Source: Candidatus Microgenomatus sp. (GTDB taxonomy: Bacteria > Patescibacteriota > Minisyncoccia > UBA6257 > GWB1-50-10). From it: 64,000 bases of DNA. The notes beneath the pieces are model-generated. The model ran no database searches. It saw nothing but the letters and a program-made list of their open reading frames with translations, and was not told where the DNA came from. Below, piece after piece: positions 1,271 through 58,325 of this stretch; the first letter of the stretch is position 1; every line of letters begins with the position of its first letter. The stretch lies in contig DYGI01000002.1 in NCBI GenBank assembly GCA_020724805.1, positions 23,582-87,581 of the forward strand. The letters run 5' to 3'. Made by a program: the position numbers and the translations under genes.

Positions 1271-3061
1271 ATGGTGTCGATTTTAGTGGGAATTTTGACC
1301 GCGCCCATCCTTTTTTTTCTTCCCGGTTATTTTTGGTCGCTCTCGTTGCCGTGGGTTCGTGGTTTCACCGTGCGCCTTGCGGTGTCGCTTGTGACGAGCG
1401 TGGCACTTGGGGTGCTTTTAAGCTACGGAGCGGCACTCTTCGATATTCCGGTTGGTGCGGCACTTTTCGCTGGATTGCTTTTGACTTCGGCGGGTTTCGG
1501 ATGGACAGTGCGGCGTAGGCTTTTTGAGGCGGTTTCCGAGTGGAGGGAAGTGCCGCGGAGCGAAAAAATGATGGCGGCAGGCCTCGTTTTTCTCTGTGTG
1601 GTGGCGGGAATTTTTGTATCGTTGCCTCATTTCGGTTACCCGTGGCCCGTCCACGGGGACGAGTGGTGGAGTGTGGGTGAGGTGCAAAATCTTTTGGAGG
1701 GGCGGTCACTTGACACTCACCCGTATTTTCTCGACCCGCTCACGAATTACAAACCGGGACTCACCGCGTATCTTTCGGGAATTTTTTCGCTGTGGCGCGT
1801 CGACCCCGTCTCCGCATGGGCCCATCTTCCTGGCGCGAACCTTTTCTTTATCGCGCTCATTTCGTCACTCCTTCTTTTTTCGATAACGCGCGATAAATTA
1901 GTCGCGCTCGCGGTTCCGGTGTTCCTCGCGGCGGTGCGGTCGAACGCGTATATGCTCGGGTGGTGGTTTTTTGTTCCTTCGACATTCGCGTTCCTTTTTA
2001 TTATCCCGCTTGTCGTCACGGTTCCGAGTTGGGCTTCAAACCGGCGCGGCGTCGTCTGGGTGCTTGCGATATTCGGAGCGCTGGCTGCGGTGTATCTTCC
2101 TTTCGCACTTTTTCTTGCGCTCGCATTCGTTCCGCTCTTTTTCTTTTCGCTCCACGGAAACGCGCGAATGATTTTTTCGATTGCGGCGCTCATGTTGTTC
2201 GCCGCGCTCGTGTTCACCGGAGCGGAGCTAAGTCCTTATCGGGAATACTGGCGCCTCTCGTCGCTGTCTGCAGCGGAAGGATGGTTTGCCGCATTCACCA
2301 CCTCATTCTTCGTTCCTATTGATGCGACGGTTCATTTCGCACAGTCTCCTGGAGCGGTGAGCGTCACCGGGTTCGGCTTGCTCGTGTTTGCGCTCGTCGG
2401 CGTATGGAAGACGTGGCGGAGCGATTGGGTGCGCGGTCTCAGGTGGGTATTGCTCGCGGCGGCAATGAATGTGACGTTGGTTATTTTCGGAGGAGTCTCG
2501 TTTTTGCTTTTTCATCAGCGCGCATTCCATCTTTTTGCGGCGATGGCGGCGCTCTGGGCCGTGCTCGGTCTTGCGGTACTCGCGCGCGAATGGTATGGGT
2601 GGGTCACAGAAAAGTGGGGGATGAGGTGGCGACGCACGCTCGTGCTTGTTTTCGCCATACTCACGCTTTCTTTTGTGTTTTTCGGTTACTTTCGGTTGCC
2701 GGCTGGCACCAGTCTCTATTTTCTCGTGAACGAGAACGATCTTGTGGCACTCCGTTGGCTCCGCGGCGAGCCTACGCTCCGCGGGTTAAAGGTAGTGGCG
2801 GATCCCGATGTTGGTACGATAGTGACCCCCCTCACGCGGTTGGTCTCCAAGGTCACTCTTCGGACGGGACAAAATACCTCTTCTGTTATTAACCCCGCGT
2901 CGGGGCGCATCTCGTTTATTGAGAGCACCTGCGAAGAGAAACGGGAATATCTTACGAGGATGGATGCGGATATCGCCTATACGCGTACCTCCCAATCGTG
3001 CCCATTTTTGGAGGAGATATTCAATACGGAAGGGGTATTTATTTACCGTATCAACAAATAA
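1271..3061 (+). CDS. Polytopic membrane glycosyltransferase of GT-C type (PMT_2/ArnT/GT39-like)
   Basis: 596 aa with about 13 TM helices. The first extracytoplasmic loop contains HGDEWW (a DE motif). There is a C-terminal soluble domain of about 100 aa. A -10 TATAAT lies at 1253-1258 in the 27-nt divergent spacer. Confidence 0.45.
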   Translation: MVSILVGILTAPILFFLPGYFWSLSLPWVRGFTVRLAVSLVTSVALGVLLSYGAALFDIPVGAALFAGLLLTSAGFGWTVRRRLFEAVSEWREVPRSEKMMAAGLVFLCVVAGIFVSLPHFGYPWPVHGDEWWSVGEVQNLLEGRSLDTHPYFLDPLTNYKPGLTAYLSGIFSLWRVDPVSAWAHLPGANLFFIALISSLLLFSITRDKLVALAVPVFLAAVRSNAYMLGWWFFVPSTFAFLFIIPLVVTVPSWASNRRGVVWVLAIFGALAAVYLPFALFLALAFVPLFFFSLHGNARMIFSIAALMLFAALVFTGAELSPYREYWRLSSLSAAEGWFAAFTTSFFVPIDATVHFAQSPGAVSVTGFGLLVFALVGVWKTWRSDWVRGLRWVLLAAAMNVTLVIFGGVSFLLFHQRAFHLFAAMAALWAVLGLAVLAREWYGWVTEKWGMRWRRTLVLVFAILTLSFVFFGYFRLPAGTSLYFLVNENDLVALRWLRGEPTLRGLKVVADPDVGTIVTPLTRLVSKVTLRTGQNTSSVINPASGRISFIESTCEEKREYLTRMDADIAYTRTSQSCPFLEEIFNTEGVFIYRINK

Positions 3062-3115
3062 AGGCTTTTCCCCAGCGTACGGCACTTTCCCTAAACTTAG
3101 GTTTGATATAATGGA

Positions 3116-3559
3116 ATGAATCGAATGGAAGCCCCGACTCAAGCGAAATCGTCCCCCTGGCTCCTTATTGTGGGAGCGGTGGTGGTAGCGTTGGTGCTGT
3201 TCTTTGTTTTTTCGGACGGGTGGGGCGATGACACATCGGACAACGGACCGTTTGGCGTTATTGTGGCGCCGACGAATGGCCTCTCAATTGTGGAGATAAA
3301 AGCGGAGGGTGGAAAATTCTTACCGAACGAGATCACGGTGAAGCGTCCCGACCCCGTCATGATTATGTTCACCGCGGTTGATGATAAATACGACATCGGC
3401 TTTGAGGACCCAAAGATAGGATTTGACGTGATTGCGGAAGTTGGTGCGGTGCAGCGATTCGGTTTCGAAACAAGCGACAAAACCCCCGGTTTCTATACCT
3501 TCCACTGCATTGAGTTTTGCCCGAAAGGTGAAATGACGGGGACGTTGAAAATAGAATAA
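3116..3559 (+). CDS. TM-anchored cupredoxin-like protein (degenerate COX2 C-terminal/CuA-like domain)
   Basis: 147 aa with an N-terminal TM helix. The C-terminus reads FHCIEFCPKGEM, resembling the COX2 CuA loop GQCSELCG..H..M. Both His ligands are missing: Tyr sits at the first His position (DDKYDIGF) and Glu at the second. TATAAT at 3107-3112. Confidence 0.5.
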   Translation: MNRMEAPTQAKSSPWLLIVGAVVVALVLFFVFSDGWGDDTSDNGPFGVIVAPTNGLSIVEIKAEGGKFLPNEITVKRPDPVMIMFTAVDDKYDIGFEDPKIGFDVIAEVGAVQRFGFETSDKTPGFYTFHCIEFCPKGEMTGTLKIE

Positions 3560-3572
3560 CCTAATTTCCATC

Positions 3573-6500
3573 ATGAAACGCTTTGCATTGCTGGTCGGGA
3601 TAATCGCCCTCTTCGGGGCGATGGTGATTGCGAGTCCGCTTGATATGGAAGAAGTAAGAGCTGCGGTGTGGGACTGGGTCCCCGGTTCGGAGAGCGGCAT
3701 CTCCGCGACTCCCACTTCGCAGTCCGCCATCAGCGTGAGTTGGGGCGAGGACTATTATTCGACCGGTCCCGAAGACCTCTACCGTTGTTCGGGGAGCGGC
3801 AGTTGTACGCCGACTTATTTTGCGAACGTTTTCCAGAGTTCGAGCTATAACAACACCGGTCTCTCGTGTGGCACTACCTATCGCTACCGTGTCTGCTCCG
3901 ACTACGGTTGTACGAGCATCGCCACCGCATCGACCGACGCTTGTACGCCTGCAACGCCGAGCACACCTTCGGCAAGTGGTACGGGCCAGACGACGATGTC
4001 GGTGACGTGGGGTGCAGTGAGTGGCGCTTCTGGCTACCACGTGTATCGAAACAGCGGCTATATCGGCGCGAGCGGAAGTGCGAGCTACAACGATTCTGGT
4101 TTGAGTTGCGGTACGCAATATGGTTACGGGATCGTGGCGTACGTAACGACGAACGGTCGCACGTATTACTCAGGTACTTCTGCGACAGGATATGGGTCGA
4201 CGAACGCGTGTCCGAGCGTGCCCACTCCGCCTTCCGGAGTCACCGCCACTCCAACCTCACAGACCACGCTCATAGTTGGATGGACCGACAACTCCGGGAA
4301 CGAAACCGGCTTTAAGGTATACAGTGGTGACGGAGTTACGCCGCGGAGCACTACTGGCGCGAATATCACTTCGGTTGAAGAAGGAGGGTTGAGTTGTGCG
4401 ACAAGCTACGACAAATGGGGGGTGAGAGCGTATAACGCGGTCGGGGACTCGAACATCGCATTCAATACCCCCCCGAGTACGCTCGATGCCTGTACGCCCT
4501 CCGCGCCTTCAGCGTTGAGTTGCAGCCCGGCCTCGCAGAGTCAGATCAACTGTTCGTGGACTGATAACTCGAACAATCCCACCACCAACTACGAAACTGG
4601 TTTCCAGGTCGAGCGATGTAGCGGATCGGGGTGTTCGGGCTACTCCCTGGTAGGTTCACCAGGTCAGAACGTCACATCCTTCTCGAGTACGGGACTTGCT
4701 TCAGGTACGCTCTATCGTCACCGTGTGCGGGCTTACGTGAGCACAAACGGGAGAACTTACTACTCTGGTTACACTGCTGTTTCAGACGCAACGACCGATG
4801 CTGCGACTCCCGGCGTTCCGACGAGCGTTTCACAGACTCCGACGGGGCAGGCGACTGTTCAAATAAGTTGGGCGGGCGGTTCGCCTTCGACCCAGACAGG
4901 GTTCCGTGTTACGGATGCGCAAGGCGTGCAGGACTATAATTCTTCGACCTTTAATGCGACCGGACTTTGCAGCACTGCGGGTGCGGCACTCTCATGTGGT
5001 ACCTCGTGCACCGCAGTCAATGTAAGAGCATATGTCGATACGAATGGGCGGCGATACTATTCCAACACAGTTACGCCGACCGCGGTTACGCTGGATGCCT
5101 GTACGCCCGCGACCCCGACCGGAGTGAGTGCAAGCGCAGTAGCCGCAAACCAAGTGAACGTGTCGTGGGGCAATGTGGCGGGAGAAACGGGATATAAAAT
5201 CAGTCGATGTACGGGGAGTAGCTGTTCACCTGCGTCGTACACAACAAAAGCAGTTGATGTAACATCGCACCCTGACGGCAGTCTCTTAGAGAACACAATC
5301 CACCGGTATGCCGTGAGTTCGTATGTATCAACGAACGGGAGGGAATATGAATCAGATCTTTCTACGGTTGCGCAGGCAACCACGCAAGATCTCGCGGTTG
5401 CCATCACTACATACTCCAGCTATGTGAACGCGGCGAACCAGGCGGCGATAGCGGTTTCCGGCACCTGCAGCGGCGGGAGCGGTACGGTGAGTATTTCGAT
5501 AACATCGACCGGTGGCGGAGGACCGGTAACCGCCTCGCCTACTTGTTCCTCCGGTACCTGGTCGGCGGGTTCTCTGAACCTTACGCCGCTTGGCCAAGGA
5601 AATCTGACCTATGCTGCAACACTTACAGTGTCACCGAACACCGCGAACGCGAGTCAGCCGGGCGTGAAAGATGTTACCGCGCCCAGTGTAACTGCGCCGA
5701 CCGACGGAGGCACCTGGACTAATAACACCTCTCTCACTTTCAGCTCAACGCCGAGCGACACGGGCGGCTCTGGTCTCTCCGATTGCACCGGTCAGATAGA
5801 CGTCAACAACACCGACGGCGCCGGCCTCGTGTTCAACGGCTCGGTGGGCACCGATGGTGACCATACGTTTGTGGGAACCTCCGGTAACACTTATTACTAT
5901 CGGGTATCTTGTACTGATAATGCGGGCAACTCGAGCGGATATACCGCGTGGACTAACGGAATCGGTCTCGACACAGGAAACCCCTCGATCACTGGCCCAA
6001 CAGACACTGGCACCTGGACTAATAACACCTCTCTCACTTTCAGCTCGACGCCGAGCGACACGGGCGGCTCTGGTCTCTCCGATTGCACCGGTCAGATAGA
6101 CGTCAACAACACCGACGGCGCCGGCCTCGTGTTCAACGGCTCGGTGGGCACCGATGGTGACCATACTTTCATCGGGACTGAGGGGAATACCTACTATTAT
6201 CGGGTATCTTGTACTGATAATGCGAGCAACTCGAGCGGATATACCGCGTGGACTAATGGGATTGGCATTGATCTTACTGCGCCCGCGTTCAGCTCGAAGA
6301 CCGCCGCATGCGGTAGCTGGCAAAACACGAACTGGGTCTCGACCTTCACCTACACCGATTCGTTCTCGGGCATCGCGTCCGGGAACAACCCCACCTGCAC
6401 TATCTCGACCGATGGGGCGAGCCAGACCTGCAACGTTACTCCGAATGTCTGCGACAACGCGAGTAACTGCAACACGACGCTTATCACGAGTAACACCTGT

Positions 6501-40359: not shown

Positions 40360-40830
40360 ATGCTAAGCCACGCCTATCTTACCCAGGAGCGACATGACGA
40401 GATCGTTCGTGAGGTACATAAACTGAAAACGGAAGAACGGAAAAAGGTTGCGGAACGGTTGAAGAACGCCAAGGACCTCGGAGATCTCTCCGAGAATTTT
40501 GATTACCATGAGGCGCGCGAGGAGCAGTCACGTCTCGAAGCGCGCATCCATGAACTCGAAGAGATACTGCGGAATTCAGTCATCATCAAAAAGGCGAGCG
40601 GCAACTCTACGGTGCGTATCGGAGGGCGAGTCGCGGTGACGCGCCCCGGCGAGGGACTCGGGGAAACGAGCTTCACCATTGTGGGCTCTTCCGAAGCGGA
40701 GCCCGCGGAAGGTTTTATCTCGAACGAATCACCCTTGGGCCGCGCGCTCCTCGGGAAAAAGGTGGGGGATACCGTGACCGTGCCCACGCCAAAGGGGACG
40801 AGCACTTATCAGATTGTAAGGATAGAATAA
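40360..40830 (+). CDS. greA: Transcription elongation factor GreA
   Basis: 156 aa: coiled-coil N-terminus (...LGDLSENFDYHEAREEQ...) and a C-terminal FKBP-like domain. Confidence 0.9.
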   Translation: MLSHAYLTQERHDEIVREVHKLKTEERKKVAERLKNAKDLGDLSENFDYHEAREEQSRLEARIHELEEILRNSVIIKKASGNSTVRIGGRVAVTRPGEGLGETSFTIVGSSEAEPAEGFISNESPLGRALLGKKVGDTVTVPTPKGTSTYQIVRIE

Positions 40831-40970
40831 GGATATGAATCCCGTTAGAAGCAACGTAGTTTGCGCAGTGGTAATATGAAAATGTGTGTAAAAGGTTTTA
40901 TTTGCCGGATAAAGCCGTTTGCTACGGGTGCGCACGGAGGCGCACCCTACTTCTAACGGGATGAAGGAGG
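40831..40970 (+). promoter_or_regulatory. Inverted-repeat leader element overlapping the lysS start codon. The arms are GGATATGAATCCCGTTAGAAG ... CTTCTAACGGGATGAAGGAGG. It contains a 14-codon uORF (40835-40879, MNPVRSNVVCAVVI).
   Basis: A perfect 13-bp stem (40839-40851 with 40950-40962) pairs the A and U of the lysS AUG. An internal GC hairpin is GGGTGCGCACGGAGGCGCACCC. The same arms recur at hrcA (45995-46084). The 12-bp IR is flanked by a 5-bp direct repeat, ATGAA. Confidence 0.5.
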
Positions 40971-42400
40971 AACTGATACGAGAACGCGCCAGGAAGCGAG
41001 AGCGGTATGCACGCGAGGCCGATCCCTATCCCGCGCGTGTCGGACGCGACGAAAGCATCGCGGAGACACTCGCCTCTTTTTCAAAAAAGCGTGCGGGCGC
41101 CCGCACACTTGCGGGTCGCGTTACCGCGCTTCGAGACCAAGGGAAGATAGTGTTTGCAAATCTTACCGACGCGACCGGCACCATTCAGTTGGTGTTGGAA
41201 GAAGGGACTACAAAACCATTCGCACTTCTTAAGGAGACGATGGACATAGGGGATTTCGTAGAGGCGAAAGGGAAGCTCACGACCACGAAACGCGGCACGA
41301 AAAGTCTCGCGGTTGCGAACGCGCGCATTATCGCAAAAAGCATGCGCCCGCTTCCCGTGCATTGGTACGGGCTTTCGGATGTGGAAACGCGGCTCCGAAA
41401 ACGCTACCTCGATCTCCTTACGCATCCGGAAACGCACGCGATGTTCTTGAAGAAGGAGCGTTTTTGGGATTCGGTGAGAAATACGCTCAAAAAGGAAGGG
41501 TTCCATGAGGTTGAGACCGGAGTGTTGGAAGCGGTGCCGGGAGGAGCCGATGCGGAACCTTTTGTCACTCACCATAACGCATTGGACATGGATTTTTATC
41601 TCCGCATTTCACTCGAACTTCCCTTGAAACGTCTCCTGGTCGGAGGCTTCGAAAAAGTGTTCGAGATAGGGCGCGTGTTCCGAAACGAAGGTATTGACCG
41701 CGAACATCTCCAGGATTACACGGCGATGGAGTGCTATGCCGCATATTGGGACGAGGAGCGCATGATGAAATTTGTCGAGGCTCTTTATAAGCAGGTAGTG
41801 AAGGACACGACCGGAGGTTCCACGACAACCTATGGGGGTGTGACATTGAAATGGGGAGGGAAATGGAAGCGTGTGGATTACTTTGAAGCGTTCAAAAAAG
41901 ATGCGGGCACGGACCTTACGAAAGTGACCGACGCCGAACTTCGCATGAAGGCGAAGGAGCTCGGATGTTCCGTGGAAGCCGGCGCCAGCCGCGGCCGCCT
42001 CATTGACGCGATATATAAGAAAACCGTACGACCGAAACTCATACAACCATGTTTTCTCGTGGGGCATCCGAAGGAAGTTTCGCCTCTCGCAAAGGACGAT
42101 CCGAAGCGTGCCGGACGCGTGCTCCGCTTCCAGCCGATGGCGGCCGGAAGCGAGATGGGGAACGGTTGGGCGGAGCTGAACGACCCGAAAGAACAGCGTG
42201 CGCGGTTCGAAGAGCAGGAAAGAGCGCGTGCGGCAGGAGATAAGGAAGCACAACGGCTTGATGAGGACTTCATCGAGGCGCTCGAATACGGCATGCCTCC
42301 TGCAGCGGGTTTTGGACTTTCCGAGCGCGTGTTCGCGGTTTTGATGGATAAGCCCATGCGCGAAACCACGCTTTTCCCCCTTATGAAAAGCGAAGAATAA
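40961..42400 (+). CDS. lysS: Lysyl-tRNA synthetase, class II
   Basis: About 479 aa from the ATG at 40961 (MKEELIRERARKRERY...DPYP). Has an N-terminal OB anticodon-binding domain and class II motifs. Confidence 0.9.
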   Translation: MKEELIRERARKRERYAREADPYPARVGRDESIAETLASFSKKRAGARTLAGRVTALRDQGKIVFANLTDATGTIQLVLEEGTTKPFALLKETMDIGDFVEAKGKLTTTKRGTKSLAVANARIIAKSMRPLPVHWYGLSDVETRLRKRYLDLLTHPETHAMFLKKERFWDSVRNTLKKEGFHEVETGVLEAVPGGADAEPFVTHHNALDMDFYLRISLELPLKRLLVGGFEKVFEIGRVFRNEGIDREHLQDYTAMECYAAYWDEERMMKFVEALYKQVVKDTTGGSTTTYGGVTLKWGGKWKRVDYFEAFKKDAGTDLTKVTDAELRMKAKELGCSVEAGASRGRLIDAIYKKTVRPKLIQPCFLVGHPKEVSPLAKDDPKRAGRVLRFQPMAAGSEMGNGWAELNDPKEQRARFEEQERARAAGDKEAQRLDEDFIEALEYGMPPAAGFGLSERVFAVLMDKPMRETTLFPLMKSEE

Positions 42401-42411
42401 TAACTATAACC

Positions 42412-43668
42412 ATGATTGACGTTCAATTTTTACGGGAAAAAACCGAAGACGCGAAAAAAGCGCTCGCGCGGAAAAGGATCGACCCCAAAGCGGTAGACAA
42501 GTTTCTTCGTGTGGACCAGAACTGGCGGACCAAACGTGCGGCACTGGATGCGCTCCAAGCGGAGCAAAAAACGGTATCCAAAACGCTTGCCGGCGCAAGG
42601 ACGGAGGAGATGCTTTCGAAGGCTCAGATACTCAAAGATCGCATTACCGAAGTTGCGGAATCACTCGCGGATGTGGAGAAAAAACGGGCGACACTGCTTG
42701 AGGAATTTCCCAATCCTCCATTTAGCGACGTGCCCGAAGGGCCTGACGCATCAGGGAATCGCGTGCTTCGCGAAGTGGGAAAGAAAACGGAGTTCGATTT
42801 TGAACCGAAGGATTATCTTACGCTCGCGGAATCGTTGAATCTTATCGACATCAAACGCGCCGCGCGCGTGGCGGGGAGCCGTTTCGGGTATCTTATGGGC
42901 GACGCGGCTCTTCTTGAGTTCGCGCTGGTGCGTCTCGCGATGGATACGCTCACCGAACACGGTTTCATACCGGTGGTTCCTCCCGTCATGATACGTCCCG
43001 AGGTATACACCGGTATGGGGCGCCTTGCCGCGGACCAAAAGGAAGAACGTTACTATTTTCCCAAGGACGATCTCTACCTCGTAGGAAGTGCGGAGCACAC
43101 CATCGGCCCGATCCATATGGATGAAACGCTCGACGAATCGGCGATTCCGCGCCGCTACGTGGGGTTTTCCACATGTTTCCGACGTGAAGCGGGGAGTTAT
43201 GGCAAGGACACGAAGGGTATTTTAAGGGTTCACCAATTCGACAAAGTCGAGATGTTCGCGTTCGCCGACCCTGCGCTCTCCGAGAAAGAGCACCGCTTTC
43301 TCGTGGACCGGCAGGAGGAACTTATGCAGAAGTTGGAACTTCCGTATCGCGTGGTCGAAGTATGCGCCGGCGATATGGGATGGACCGACGCACGTCAATT
43401 CGATATTGAAACATGGATCCCCAGCGAACGCTCCTACCGGGAAACACAGTCATGCTCGAACACCACCGATTTTCAGGCGCGCGGAATAAACGTGAAGGTG
43501 AAGAGGAAAGACGGCGAGAAAACATATGCACATATGTTGAATGCGACCGCGTTCGCGATAGGGAGGACGCTTATTGCGCTCATTGAGAACCATCAGACGA
43601 AGAAGGGGACGGTGAAGGTGCCAAAAGCGCTTCAGGAGTATCTTGGAAAGAAGGAAATCGGCAGTTGA
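42412..43668 (+). CDS. serS: Seryl-tRNA synthetase
   Basis: 418 aa: N-terminal coiled-coil arm and a class II core (...FRREAGSYGKDTKGILRVHQFDKVE...). Confidence 0.9.
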   Translation: MIDVQFLREKTEDAKKALARKRIDPKAVDKFLRVDQNWRTKRAALDALQAEQKTVSKTLAGARTEEMLSKAQILKDRITEVAESLADVEKKRATLLEEFPNPPFSDVPEGPDASGNRVLREVGKKTEFDFEPKDYLTLAESLNLIDIKRAARVAGSRFGYLMGDAALLEFALVRLAMDTLTEHGFIPVVPPVMIRPEVYTGMGRLAADQKEERYYFPKDDLYLVGSAEHTIGPIHMDETLDESAIPRRYVGFSTCFRREAGSYGKDTKGILRVHQFDKVEMFAFADPALSEKEHRFLVDRQEELMQKLELPYRVVEVCAGDMGWTDARQFDIETWIPSERSYRETQSCSNTTDFQARGINVKVKRKDGEKTYAHMLNATAFAIGRTLIALIENHQTKKGTVKVPKALQEYLGKKEIGS

Positions 43669-43737
43669 TGCCTATTCGTGTCGACTGGGCGCACGCGCGC
43701 ATATCGCGTGTGTTTTGTTTTGGGTACAATAGAGACA

Positions 43738-44325
43738 ATGCGTGGTTTGGTAATGAAAATTTTTTGGCTCGCGGCGGCAGGGACACTCCTCTACGGAGGG
43801 TTCGTGGCGTACGAGCGGTGGTGGGACGGAGATTGGTCTTTGGTGAAAAATCGAGTACTCTCGTTCGTTGGAGAGAACACTGCAGAAATTCAGGAACAGG
43901 CGCTGGAAAAAGGGAATGAGGTATTGGAGAATGTGAAGAAAGAAGCAACCGAACAAGCGAAGACTACCATCTCCTCGTTTATTGGGGGAGTTATAGAATC
44001 TCTGGGGGAGTCCATCGCGCATTATGGAGAATCGGTGGCGGGAGCGCCTGCGGTGGTGGATATCCCCGCCGCACGCGGGCCGTCGTTTGCGACTCCTCCG
44101 CCTCCCGTTGCGGTGTCTGCGCGCGCGGGTGAGCCGCTCACGTTCGTGGTGAATGAAGCGGGCCAATACACGGTGACGTGGGGAGATAATGCCACGAGCG
44201 AAGGAGAGGTGAAGGAGGGGGAGAATGTGCTCCTTGAACATACGTGGACCGCGCCGGGTGATTACGTGGTTATCCTTTCCACTGTTTCACATACCGAAAC
44301 ATTTCCCATCCGTATCTACGAGTAA
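43738..44325 (+). CDS. Hypothetical membrane-anchored protein
   Basis: About 195 aa from the ATG at 43738 (MRGLVMKIFWLAAAGTLLYGGF...). GGGTACAATAGAG at 43722-43734 places the -10 seven nt before this ATG, so the transcript is leaderless. The ORF-track start at 43678 would lie upstream of that promoter. Confidence 0.5.
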   Translation: MRGLVMKIFWLAAAGTLLYGGFVAYERWWDGDWSLVKNRVLSFVGENTAEIQEQALEKGNEVLENVKKEATEQAKTTISSFIGGVIESLGESIAHYGESVAGAPAVVDIPAARGPSFATPPPPVAVSARAGEPLTFVVNEAGQYTVTWGDNATSEGEVKEGENVLLEHTWTAPGDYVVILSTVSHTETFPIRIYE

Positions 44326-44328
44326 TCT

Positions 44329-45135
44329 ATGGCGCGCTTTTCCGAACAACATGAAATATTAAGGGGTTCGCGCACGCGCGCGCGGAAGCGCTTTGTGTTG
44401 AAACTCGTGCTTTGGTGGGGCGCGGGGCTTGTGGTGGCGGGAGGAATAGGATATGCACTTTTCACCACCGGTGCGCTTGTGGTGCAGGAAGTGAAAATCG
44501 AGGGAGTGCAACTCGCGGATCACGGGAAAGTGAGAATGGAAATCGTGCGTGCGGCATCGTTTCCTCCTCGCGCATGGCTTGGAGAGCACGCTACGCTTTT
44601 CTGGCTCTTCCTCAATCCCTCCGAAGAATTTTTGTCGGCATTCCCGATGTTCCGGGAGGTAACCGTTCGCGTGGACTTGTTTTCTCGCGTGGTGACCATT
44701 CGCGCGGAGGAGAGGGAACTCTACGGCGTGTGGTGTCTCTCGGGCGGAAGCTGCTATGCATTCGATCGGGAGGGGGTAGTGTTCGGAAAGGCGCCCGCGA
44801 CTTCTGGAACGCTTGTGACGAAAGTGATGGATGCGCGCGACGGCACATTTTCGCCAGGAAACGTAGTGCTCGCGGACCCCTTATGGCGGGAACGACTCCT
44901 CGGCACACTTGAGGTCATTCATGAGGTGCGTCTCACTCCACGCGTCATCATGGTGCGCGAAGATATGCTTCGCGAATGGGAAGTGGCACTGGTTGAAGGG
45001 CCTACATTGAAATTCTCGTTCGATTTTATACCGGAAAGACTCGAAGACGCGCTCACTTCGCTTTCCCGCCGCGGCGATTTCCGCGCGCTTACCTACTTGG
45101 ATTTCCGCGTTCCTGACCGTCTCTATTACAAGTAG
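44329..45135 (+). CDS. Cell division protein FtsQ/DivIB-like (TM plus POTRA)
   Basis: 268 aa. Basic N-terminus, one TM, then ...VVQEVKIEGVQL... in a POTRA-like domain. Confidence 0.5.
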   Translation: MARFSEQHEILRGSRTRARKRFVLKLVLWWGAGLVVAGGIGYALFTTGALVVQEVKIEGVQLADHGKVRMEIVRAASFPPRAWLGEHATLFWLFLNPSEEFLSAFPMFREVTVRVDLFSRVVTIRAEERELYGVWCLSGGSCYAFDREGVVFGKAPATSGTLVTKVMDARDGTFSPGNVVLADPLWRERLLGTLEVIHEVRLTPRVIMVREDMLREWEVALVEGPTLKFSFDFIPERLEDALTSLSRRGDFRALTYLDFRVPDRLYYK

Positions 45136-45145
45136 TTTTGTTAGA

Positions 45146-45958
45146 ATGAAGGTAATGAACCGCCGCTCCGGTTTCACCCTCATCGAACTTATCATCTACA
45201 TGGCGATTTTCGGAGTTTCCGCCGTGTTTTTGGTTTCCATTTTGACCTCGGTGACGCGTACGCAGGTGCGCCAAGCTTCGGGAAATGAAGTAAACCAGCA
45301 GCTTTCGTTCGTTTCGAACACCATTCAACGTCTGGTGCGGAGTGCCTCTCAAGTTTCAAACGAAGCGGGAGTGGCTTCGACCACGCTCGTGCTTCGCATG
45401 GCCTCGTCTACCGTTGACCCGACCTATATCTATGTGGATGCGTCTTCCACCGCCATCTATCTCCAGGAAGCAACTTCTACGCCCATACGTCTCACCGACG
45501 ACAAAGTTACGGTGGCGAATTTTTCTGTGACGAAGCAGGAACCGGCCGGCGGTCTTGCGGTGGTACATGTGGACCTTACTTTGGAATACAACACCACTTC
45601 CGATCAATCGAAAGCGTCACGGGCATGGAGCGGGGCGATTGCGCGCATCTCCGCCGCCACCTTCGATTCGGGAATCTTTCCGAACTCAAGTGCCGCTCTA
45701 GACCTTGGGAGCGCTTCACTCCAATGGCGTGATGCATTTTTTTCGAATAGCGTGACCATCGGTACGAACGGCGAGCTTGGGGTAGGGGGGAGTCCTTCTA
45801 CTAACCCTACGACGAAGATTTACATCACGAACGGCGACGTCGGTTTCTCGTCGAGCACCTACGGCGTCCTCCTCATGTCTCCTGGAGGCACCTGTTTCCG
45901 TCTCACCGTGACCAATAGCGGCGCGCTTGCTACATCCACACAAACCTGTCCGAATTAG
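45146..45958 (+). CDS. Type IV pilin/pseudopilin with class III (prepilin) signal
   Basis: 270 aa: MKVMNRRSG|FTLIELIIYMAIFGVSAVFL..., with the prepilin peptidase site at G|F and E5. Confidence 0.8.
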   Translation: MKVMNRRSGFTLIELIIYMAIFGVSAVFLVSILTSVTRTQVRQASGNEVNQQLSFVSNTIQRLVRSASQVSNEAGVASTTLVLRMASSTVDPTYIYVDASSTAIYLQEATSTPIRLTDDKVTVANFSVTKQEPAGGLAVVHVDLTLEYNTTSDQSKASRAWSGAIARISAATFDSGIFPNSSAALDLGSASLQWRDAFFSNSVTIGTNGELGVGGSPSTNPTTKIYITNGDVGFSSSTYGVLLMSPGGTCFRLTVTNSGALATSTQTCPN

Positions 45959-45990
45959 CACTTGACACTGTTGGGTGCTAACACTATCCT
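45954..45990 (+). promoter_or_regulatory. CIRCE-like HrcA operator overlapping a sigma-70 promoter
   Basis: TTAGCACCT-N10-GGGTGCTAA at 45954-45981 (8/9 and 8/9 to CIRCE, spacer 1 nt longer than canonical). TTGACA at 45962-45967, 17 nt, then TATCCT at 45985-45990. Confidence 0.6.
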
Positions 45991-45994
45991 TTGA

Positions 45995-46084
45995 GGATAT
46001 GAATCCCGTTAGAAGTAGCCGCGCCAGCGGTCCCAGAGGGACTCGTGACTTTGTTACGAGCGCGACTTCTAATGGGATGAAGGA
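45995..46084 (+). promoter_or_regulatory. Second copy of the inverted-repeat leader element: GGATATGAATCCCGTTAGAAG ... CTTCTAATGGGATGAAGGA
   Basis: 13-bp stem with one G.U wobble (C to T). The MNPVRS ORF starts at 45999 and runs in frame into hrcA. ATGAA direct repeats are present. Confidence 0.5.
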
Positions 46085-51325: not shown

Positions 51326-51473
51326 ATTGACGAACGCCTAGAATTCGGTATTATTGAGGTGTCCGTAGACAGCAGGTGGGGAATACCCATAAATCCTGCC
51401 GAGGGAACGCCAATTTCGGCGTGTACCACTACGGCTCAAAGGTCGTGGTGTTTCTTTTAAAGAAACGAGCCAA
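51326..51473 (+). promoter_or_regulatory. Untranslated leader of rplJ-rplL (putative L10 autoregulatory leader)
   Basis: A 148-nt structured gap upstream of rplJ. The position is consistent with the L10 leader, but no motif was verified. Confidence 0.25.
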
Positions 51474-52938: not shown

Positions 52939-53010
52939 GCGCGTTTAGCTCAGTGGTAGAGCGCTTCGTTCACATCGAAGAGGTCGCTGGTTCGATCCCA
53001 GCAACGCGCA
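52939..53010 (+). tRNA. tRNA-Val (anticodon CAC)
   Basis: GCGCGTT acceptor, D arm TAGCTCAGTGGTAGAGC, anticodon loop TTCACAT, T arm GCTGGTTCGATCCCAGC, acceptor AACGCGC plus A. No encoded CCA. Confidence 0.9.
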
Positions 53011-53016
53011 CTGCGT

Positions 53017-53433: not shown

Positions 53434-53640
53434 AGGTCATTGGTGTACCTCGTTCAAAGTCGCGCTCGCGATGGAATCGCGAGTCTCTCCAGGACCGCTG
53501 GCGCGGCTACTTTAAACGGGGTGAACAAGATGTTGATAACTTCACGCTGAGAATTTACGAAGTGTAGGTAAATAAAGAACTTTTTTACCACGCCCCACAT
53601 TAGGGCGTGGTGTTTGTTGGTGTTGAGGAAGGGAGCGATA

Positions 53641-58252: not shown

Positions 58253-58324
58253 GGCCCCATCGTCTAGTGGTCAGGACACGTGGTTCTCATCCACGAAACA
58301 GGAGTTCGATTCTCCTTGGGGCTA
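58253..58324 (+). tRNA. tRNA-Glu (anticodon CUC)
   Basis: GGCCCCA acceptor with a G1.U72 wobble, anticodon loop TTCTCAT, T arm AGGAGTTCGATTCTCCT, discriminator A. Confidence 0.85.
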
Positions 58325-58325
58325 C

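Follow-up and report, generated by a model that had tools for sequence, protein, structure and literature searches.

A probable family of miniature inverted-repeat transposable elements on start codons in Patescibacteria

[quoted passage not shown] It carries genes for GreA, LysS, SerS, three unassigned proteins, one of which has a type IV pilin-like N-terminal methylation motif, and then HrcA, GrpE and DnaK. Two short insertions, placed on the start codons of lysS and hrcA, are the subject of this study. Their ends are 12-nt inverted repeats, TCCCGTTAGAAG and CTTCTAAYGGGA, and both copies have TGAA on each side. [quoted passage not shown]

At lysS, the order on the plus strand is greA-TAA-GGAT-ATGAA, TCCCGTTAGAAG, 98 nt, CTTCTAACGGGA, then TGAAGGAGG. 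The original lysS start ATG (40835-40837) overlaps the left TGAA (40836-40839); in the relatives L126, L156, L157 and L158, a single ATGAA stands at this place, 4 nt past the greA stop. Element copy 1 follows (122 nt, 40840..40961), with its 5′ arm at 40840-40851 and its 3′ arm at 40950-40961. The last base of the element is the A of the regenerated lysS ATG (40961-40963), which overlaps the right TGAA (40962-40965), and the LysS Pfam domains match the ORF starting at 40961.

The hrcA locus, also on the plus strand, is built in the same way, reading GAGGAT-ATGAA, TCCCGTTAGAAG, 50 nt, CTTCTAATGGGA, then TGAAGGAAC. The original start ATG (45999-46001) overlaps the left TGAA (46000-46003), as placed by the sequence and by the empty sites of relatives. 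Element copy 2 (74 nt, 46004..46077) is in frame and stop-free; its 5′ arm (46004-46015) and its 3′ arm (46066-46077), which carries one C>T change, enclose an interior, here termed type-2, with three small hairpins. The regenerated ATG (46077-46079) overlaps the right TGAA (46078-46081), and orthologues begin MKERTR. Upstream lies a CIRCE operator, recognized by its sequence (TTAGCACTT-N9-GGGTGCTAA, 45955-45981, plus strand), in a region conserved in all relatives examined. The hrcA promoter overlaps the operator, with TTGACA at 45962-45967, a 17-nt spacer and TATCCT at 45985-45990 on the same strand. Because only about 8 nt separate this −10 box from the first ATG of the locus, hrcA is probably transcribed with no leader or almost none.

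The 12-mer is found four times in the window with at most one mismatch, forming two inverted pairs, against 0.21 ± 0.46 expected; none of 100 shuffles gave four. Folding predicts long-range stems of −54.3 kcal/mol (z = −5.6) for the lysS copy and −41.1 kcal/mol (z = −4.8) for the hrcA copy, and in both the predicted closing stem takes in the A and U of the downstream AUG, as the sequence-only reading had proposed.

A third, decayed copy lies on the minus strand at 53448..53521, where it occupies the gap that separates mraZ from a DoxX-like gene. It was recognized from a repeat finder, which pairs the hrcA interior with 53457-53520 on the opposite strand at 81% identity, and from a reading of that strand. 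It has CCCCGTTTAAAG and CTTTGAACGAGG as arms, and compensatory changes relative to copy 2 are present in the third hairpin. This decayed copy with a copy-2-like interior shows that interiors are not unique and that arms can decay. The interior lengths in the earlier description (98 nt and 50 nt) hold, and the hrcA interior has, besides this paralogue, further close relatives in metagenomes. A search of the window for additional copies, with up to four mismatches allowed per arm, returned no more than in shuffled sequence.

Orthologous loci, gathered through LysS and HrcA, supply the empty sites whose comparison the sequence-only reading had suggested. The lysS start is empty in four Brennerbacteria-like genomes: L126 (taaAAGC-ATGAAAGAGG), L156 (taaAGGT-ATGAAAGAGG), L157 (taaGGGT-ATGAAAGAAG) and L158 (taaAGAC-ATGAAGGAAG). 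The hrcA start is empty in five relatives (L156, L157, L158, L160 and L162), including the closest, L162, whose HrcA is 87% identical and whose site reads ...GGATGAT-ATGAAGGAACG. The empty sites hold a single copy of the flanking 4-mer. In two further relatives the hrcA site is filled differently: L126 has another element, with a 94-nt interior and arms TCCCGTTAGAGA and TCTCTAACGGGA that carry compensatory changes, and L161 has a decayed type-2 element in the opposite orientation, still in frame. From these different fillings in L126, L161 and the window it follows that the same start codon, that of hrcA, has been hit at least three times within one small clade. On this comparative evidence, the lysS and hrcA "leaders" are a mobile DNA element and not a conserved regulatory leader.

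The same arms recur well beyond this clade. A metagenome collection was scanned with the pattern T[GT][AC]A + TCCCGTTAGAAG, in which two degenerate positions let one pattern catch either arm. Among the matches listed, on which all family counts rest, there are at least 120 contigs and, after arm pairing, at least 98 complete elements, answering the call for further arm pairs elsewhere. Interiors range from 8 to 261 nt, whole elements from 32 to 285 nt and contigs from 32% to 57% G+C, and the only ORFs inside the elements are short upstream ORFs. The interiors are almost all mutually unrelated, with only 12 bp conserved; in 82 elements, a set selected for near-exact arms, these 12-bp arms are Watson-Crick paired at 97% of positions. 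The hrcA-type interior is found nearly unchanged in L024, L028, L029, L071, L087 and L088, in both orientations relative to the flanks, and a CCGCGGTCGC...GACCGCGACCTG sub-family has so far been seen in one orientation only. Up to three copies lie within 9-14 kb in L016, L088, L101 and L121. The same arm pattern gave 27 matches in viral contigs, all single arms with no paired element, which therefore serve as a negative control for chance matches; carriage of the element by phages is accordingly unsupported.

The closest named relatives of the window lineage are Candidatus Brennerbacteria and Jorgensenbacteria, and those of an element contig with 36% G+C are Patescibacteria and Parcubacteria. 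Another contig, L079, has an element at 105-221 and, at 306-418, just upstream of def-fmt, a match to the Rfam family Atu_C6/EcpR1, an alphaproteobacterial small RNA family (82.3 bits, E = 5.7e-10); either this contig is not from a Patescibacterium or a GC-rich hairpin region cross-matches the model. Abutting or tandem elements occur in L077 (2610-2833) and L046 (1-225), where the left flank is the other element's 3′ arm (TTTCTAACGGGATGAA directly followed by TCCC...), which suggests repeated hits on the regenerated ATGAA. The Logan assemblies of the same organism offer a further observation: the first base of L003 coincides with the start of the 5′ arm in the hrcA element, whereas L004 and L005 begin within that element. 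Short-read assemblies thus break at the element, as they would at a dispersed repeat.

The flanks define the target duplication. Identical 4-bp flanks occur in 60 of the 98 elements, a sample in most of which the pattern T[GT][AC]A had fixed one flank; TGAA accounts for 56, and TTAA, TGCA, TTGA and CAGG occur once each. In L117, one element is nested inside another and has CAGG/CAGG flanks. This nested copy establishes that the duplication is 4 bp and that the terminal T and A belong to the element. The 5-bp duplication ATGAA of the sequence-only reading therefore shortens to TGAA, the A of the right-hand ATGAA being the last base of the element. Fifteen elements lie outside the selection imposed by the search pattern, and TGAA/TGAA, TGGA/TGGA, TTGA/TTGA and CAGG/CAGG are all seen among them.

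These elements are short (under about 500 bp), lack a transposase gene, have terminal inverted repeats and a target-site duplication, occur in multiple copies, and are present or absent at orthologous sites, which are the hallmarks of MITEs. We consider it likely that they form a non-autonomous, MITE-like family that is widespread in Patescibacteria of the CPR, Parcubacteria-type, and sits on start codons while the gene is kept translated. The first of the two earlier interpretations, a MITE-like insertion with a duplication at start sites, is thus borne out by the empty sites, the copies elsewhere, the duplicated flanks and the nested insertion, but neither its 5-bp duplication nor its proposed target, the 12-mer GGATATGAAGGA, holds. 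In 82% of cases an A stands just before the left TGAA, with no conservation further upstream; in L162, the closest empty relative, GAT already precedes the ATG. At both window insertions, GGAT precedes the element (40830-40843 and 45994-46007), and together with the start of the 5′ arm it could form a 4-bp mini-hairpin, GGAT-ATGA-ATCC, whose loop would contain the upstream AUG. At hrcA, L162 shows GAT to be ancestral, and GGAT is not a family-wide feature.

The position of the elements is their most distinctive property. In 82 of the 98, the last A of the element and the duplicated TG form an ATG that opens an ORF of at least 60 aa, and about 80% of copies lie on a start codon (A followed by TGAA), with the ATG rebuilt right before an intact coding sequence. 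The downstream proteins are diverse and mutually unrelated, and include MurG, RuvC, L22, L24, S15, DnaA, SHMT, RNase III, FtsH, SecE, SecG, S5, PNPase, pyrophosphatase, FtsW, pyruvate kinase, trigger factor and ProRS. Most of these names are our own reading of the sequences; ten proteins were checked against Pfam, and all ten match. For nine of them, residues 1-6 align first, to profile positions 1-4; for the pyrophosphatase, residue 17 is the first to align, to profile position 1. The regenerated ATG therefore marks the native N-terminus. Eleven of the fifteen elements outside the search-pattern selection, L126 being one of the fifteen, sit on gene starts, as do all four elements found without the arm pattern (L126, L161 and the two window copies), which are at start codons.

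By crude gene models of the same contigs, start-codon TGAA makes up 2.3% of all TGAA sites and 10.6% of those that are either at start codons or intergenic. With so low a share, the loss of intragenic insertions alone cannot explain about 80%. The excess at start sites may reflect either active targeting or the loss of most other insertions too.

Two individual loci are worth recording here. In L102 (4429-4518), an element with TGGA/TGGA flanks lies at a gene whose upstream start is TTG, and the TTG start is replaced by the regenerated ATG. For the MurG N-terminus of L078, all 120 listed database relatives (P0115-P0234) are 54-158 aa long, some of them on contigs of about 100 kb, whereas the MurG genes of L078 and L110 encode 376 aa; the short relatives are possibly split genes, other insertions or fragmentary calls.

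The ends of the element are also informative with respect to reading frames. The sequence at the 3′ arm is C-TTC-TAA-CGG-G-ATG-AA. Of the three frames into the regenerated ATG, one has a TAA 4 nt upstream of it, another has a TGA that overlaps it (ATGA), and the third enters the gene. Read from the original ATG, the 5′ arm contains no stop (MNPVRS). At lysS, upstream ORF 1 (MNPVRSNVVCAVVI followed by a stop, 40835..40879, plus strand) begins at the original ATG and ends in a TGA that shares bases with the following ATG (ATGA); there, upstream ORF 2 begins (26 codons, 40876..40956, plus strand), which ends on the 3′-arm TAA, 4 nt before the lysS ATG. At hrcA, an element-extended ORF of 248 aa (P0001, 45999..46745, plus strand) consists of 26 added residues, MNPVRSSRASGPRGTRDFVTSATSNG, fused to the 222-aa HrcA. 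The source assembly calls hrcA in this extended form, and lysS at 490 aa. In L126, a 41-codon ORF spans the whole element and terminates at the ATGA overlap, while the type-2 copies (hrcA, L029, L087 and L088) are in-frame additions of 25-41 codons, open in both orientations.

The upstream ORF is open far more often than in the controls. With elements counted as independent (the interiors are mostly unalignable, yet sub-families exist), 28 of 62 elements keep it open from end to end of the interior, compared with 10.9 ± 2.8 for shuffled interiors (maximum 20 in 500), 13 for reverse-complemented interiors, and 15 and 9 for the other two frames. On the same footing, a relay model in which restarts may occur between −7 and +10 nt of an internal stop works for 34 of 59 elements, through the arm TAA (23), the overlapping TGA (5), in-frame fusion (5) or past the regenerated ATG in another frame (1); shuffles give 16.3 ± 3.4 (maximum 28) and reverse-complemented interiors 16. 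Open upstream ORFs point to termination-reinitiation or in-frame fusion, and the remark of the sequence-only reading on the small ORFs proved a good lead, as translation through the element appears to matter.

From these statistics we infer that ribosomes may still initiate at the original ATG upstream and continue into the element, which would melt its hairpin. The frame would then decide whether they stop at the 3′-repeat TAA 4 nt before the new ATG, stop at the overlapping TGA (ATGA), or read into the gene, so that the gene product would be made via termination-reinitiation or as an N-terminally extended protein. In this scheme, hrcA would be the in-frame case, with 26 extra residues, and lysS would follow a two-step relay (upstream ORF 1, ATGA overlap, upstream ORF 2, TAA-CGGG-ATG). 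Insertions in essential genes with an unsuitable orientation or frame are presumably lost; the persistence of only those with a permissive orientation and frame would explain the one-orientation sub-family.

Rare use of Shine-Dalgarno (SD) sequences in the host, together with short or absent leaders, would make such insertions tolerable. SD-like motifs lie upstream of 9% of element-carrying genes and 15% of control genes, and in these genomes a −10-like box is often found 3-10 nt before the ATG. A preference of the element for leaderless genes was considered and dropped, the enrichment of −10-like boxes being only weak (40% vs 30%). The anti-SD motif is present in only 48% of Parcubacteria 16S rRNAs (PMC9297842).

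A bolder proposal, which we advance tentatively as a real possibility, is that of a transposon specialized for start codons in the SD-poor, compact genomes of Patescibacteria, whose end repeat is a three-frame stop-and-restart cassette and which finds start codons actively. The cassette would comprise the TAA, the TGA and the terminal A that completes the ATG, the mirror-image arm being free of stops in the ATG frame, and insertion on an essential start codon would be translationally almost silent. The route to start codons would lead, for example, through initiation complexes or open promoter complexes on genes almost without leaders, and would not be mere survival of such insertions. If this is true, N-terminal extensions and 5′ hairpins on core proteins and mRNAs would be a by-product.

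Several points weigh against a translated, start-codon-borne MITE family. Target preference is only partly measured, one flank having been set by the search pattern, and host taxonomy rests on the window lineage and one other contig. The interiors are highly diverse even inside one genome, unlike what a MITE burst usually leaves. On the translational side, 25 of the 59 elements fail the simple relay model, and a hairpin of −41 to −54 kcal/mol, as predicted here, should hinder initiation when it lies 4 nt past the upstream AUG, unless ribosomes load during transcription or the transcript undergoes processing. Finally, an autonomous element was not found: about 0.87 Mb of element-bearing contigs hold no arm pairs 0.4-3 kb apart. 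Next to the single exact arms in L098, L108, L013 and L018, the ORFs belong to ordinary genes or to phage-like sequence, with no transposase among them; each single arm examined either falls within an ordinary gene or matches by chance.

The alternative that retains most weight, though we think it unlikely, accepts a mobile element but has RNase III or another nuclease cut the hairpin, leaving a near-leaderless mRNA that starts just before the regenerated AUG and making the upstream ORF irrelevant. Such processing has a precedent in Neisseria, where RNase III cuts hairpins from Correia inverted repeats. The predicted stems pair without a mismatch for 13-20 bp or more, these genomes encode RNase III (L037), and both the rarity of SD use and the −10-like boxes close to the ATG would suit mRNAs of this kind. 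However, a 13-bp stem is short for RNase III, and cleavage leaves unexplained the open upstream frame (28 of 62 against about 11 expected) and likewise the specificity of frame and orientation. As a separate observation, the RNase III gene of L037 itself has an element on its start codon (1090-1242); its product is a candidate processor of these hairpins.

Movement by a mechanism other than a cut-and-paste DDE transposase appears improbable. A site-specific recombinase working on a short core, an integron-like cassette site, or a hairpin transposase of the IS200/IS605 or REP/RAYT type would fit the failure to find a transposase in the element-bearing contigs, the hairpin-rich nature of the element, the GTT and AAC triplets in its arms and its strong target bias. 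Against this, the flanks co-vary as true 4-bp duplications (TGAA, TGGA, TTGA, TTAA, TGCA and CAGG), which argues for a staggered cut, and the same interior occurs in both orientations. IS200/IS605 elements make no duplication, hairpin elements of this kind have subterminal hairpins and enter beside a fixed tetra- or pentanucleotide, and the repeats here are terminal, not subterminal; the varied 4-bp duplications and terminal repeats rule out a hairpin element of the IS200/IS605 or REP/RAYT type. Integron attC sites have RYYYAAC at the 5′ side and GTTRRRY at the 3′ side and stand at the 3′ end of cassettes. In the present elements the order is opposite, the 5′ arm containing GTT and the 3′ arm AAC, and the elements sit on core-gene start codons; attC was rejected on both counts. 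Xer and CRISPR readings were rejected on sequence anatomy.

Programmed translational bypass, in which a ribosome with initiator tRNA would hop from the first AUGAA over the hairpin to the second, is very improbable. It draws on the identical take-off and landing AUGAA around a stable hairpin, and byp elements in the mitochondria of Magnusiomyces are short mobile inserts between matching codons. Nevertheless, no stop codon stands right after the take-off site, a nascent-peptide signal is impossible at the first codon, and selection for upstream ORFs that stay open up to the arm stops fits read-through and not hopping.

Scarcely any credence attaches to a conserved cis-regulatory leader (an RNA thermometer or leader-peptide attenuator) hiding the start codon of stress genes such as lysS and hrcA, the second of the earlier interpretations: the strong predicted stem over the A and U of the AUG and the place of hrcA at the head of the heat-shock operon, with CIRCE just upstream, speak for it, but it is contradicted by the empty orthologous sites, the insert being absent from lysS in four relatives and from hrcA in five, including the closest, and it also has against it the same arms before unrelated housekeeping genes, the duplicated flanks and nested copy, the decayed arms beside an intact hrcA in L161, and the use of one interior in both orientations. 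A G.U wobble in the hrcA copy had been taken as a sign of conserved structure. This fails across the family, where arm mismatches on the sense strand number 3 G.U and 10 A.C, with no G.U excess, and selection on the stem at the RNA level was rejected on these figures. Rfam (release 15) at its gathering threshold gave no match at the window copies or at the elements of 20 other loci, a search of the lysS locus with relaxed E-values gave none either, and ARAGORN found no tRNA-like gene at the elements.

Among known systems close to the present family, bacterial MITEs such as Correia (CREE/NEMIS), RUP and ERIC are likewise short and non-coding, with terminal inverted repeats, target duplications and many copies. 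Orthologous sites may have or lack them, and they are co-transcribed with neighbors and form RNA hairpins. Correia elements, in contrast, duplicate TA, have 26-bp repeats and are intergenic, and no bacterial MITE has been reported on start codons or as rebuilding an ATG. The phrase "start codon" is absent from a 2024 review of prokaryotic MITEs (PMC10969869). Rickettsia palindromic elements are likewise palindromic selfish DNA that survives in essential genes by staying translatable. However, they are inserted inside coding regions, where they become internal peptide segments not tied to the start codon, and they are without a defined 4-bp duplication or a stop-and-restart cassette.

Eukaryotic algae and fungi have introner-type DNA transposons in which the element end and the duplicated target recreate a splice site. 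The logic is alike here, where A + TG restores an expression signal, ATG; introners are eukaryotic and neutralized by splicing, whereas the present element stays in the mRNA and is apparently neutralized by translation. T4 gene 60 and the Magnusiomyces byp elements resemble the family as short hairpin-forming inserts between identical codons in translated regions, byp being mobile as well, but they act by hopping, while the evidence here favors read-through and reinitiation, at the first codon. As a possible lead to the enzyme, the IS1380 family and piggyBac-type DDE transposons have 4-5-bp duplications (TTAA for piggyBac) and short repeats beginning CC(C). The family differs in its termini, T-CCC...GGG-A, and in its main target, TGAA. 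A search of the full-text literature for the arm sequences, start-codon MITEs, CPR repeats, CPR leaderless translation and TGAA duplications returned nothing relevant. By structure, then, the family fits the definition of a MITE, save for the autonomous partner, of which the element-bearing contigs (about 0.87 Mb) gave none, and is apparently undescribed, distinctive in its start-codon niche and in an end repeat that would also hand translation over to the gene.

Among prokaryotic transposon families this one would be the first known to occupy start codons, and it would exemplify mobile DNA that encodes in its ends translational signals hiding the insertion, in parallel to introners that supply splice sites. 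Such elements explain many odd gene calls in CPR genomes, among them N-terminal extensions beginning MNPVRS and mis-called starts, as for lysS (490 aa) and hrcA (248 aa) in the source assembly. They could also serve as a natural probe of translation initiation in bacteria largely without SD pairing and as a polymorphic marker set for CPR population genetics. A transposase, if found, would be of practical interest for its apparent start-codon preference.

The window has other features as well. Two direct copies of a 275-nt unit at 5691-5965 and 5991-6265, 300 nt apart and 91% identical, probably represent a repeated protein domain. The region 51345-51466, upstream of rplJ-rplL, matches the Rfam L10 leader (48.8 bits vs a gathering score of 44), and genes for tRNA-Val and tRNA-Glu lie at 52939-53011 and 58253-58325. 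In the Brennerbacteria relative L159 (JACPEK010000006.1), a reverse transcriptase gene (RVT_1) and a bAvd gene stand between serS and the pilin-like gene (2750-4090). These are hallmarks of a diversity-generating retroelement, and nothing occupies the same position in the window.

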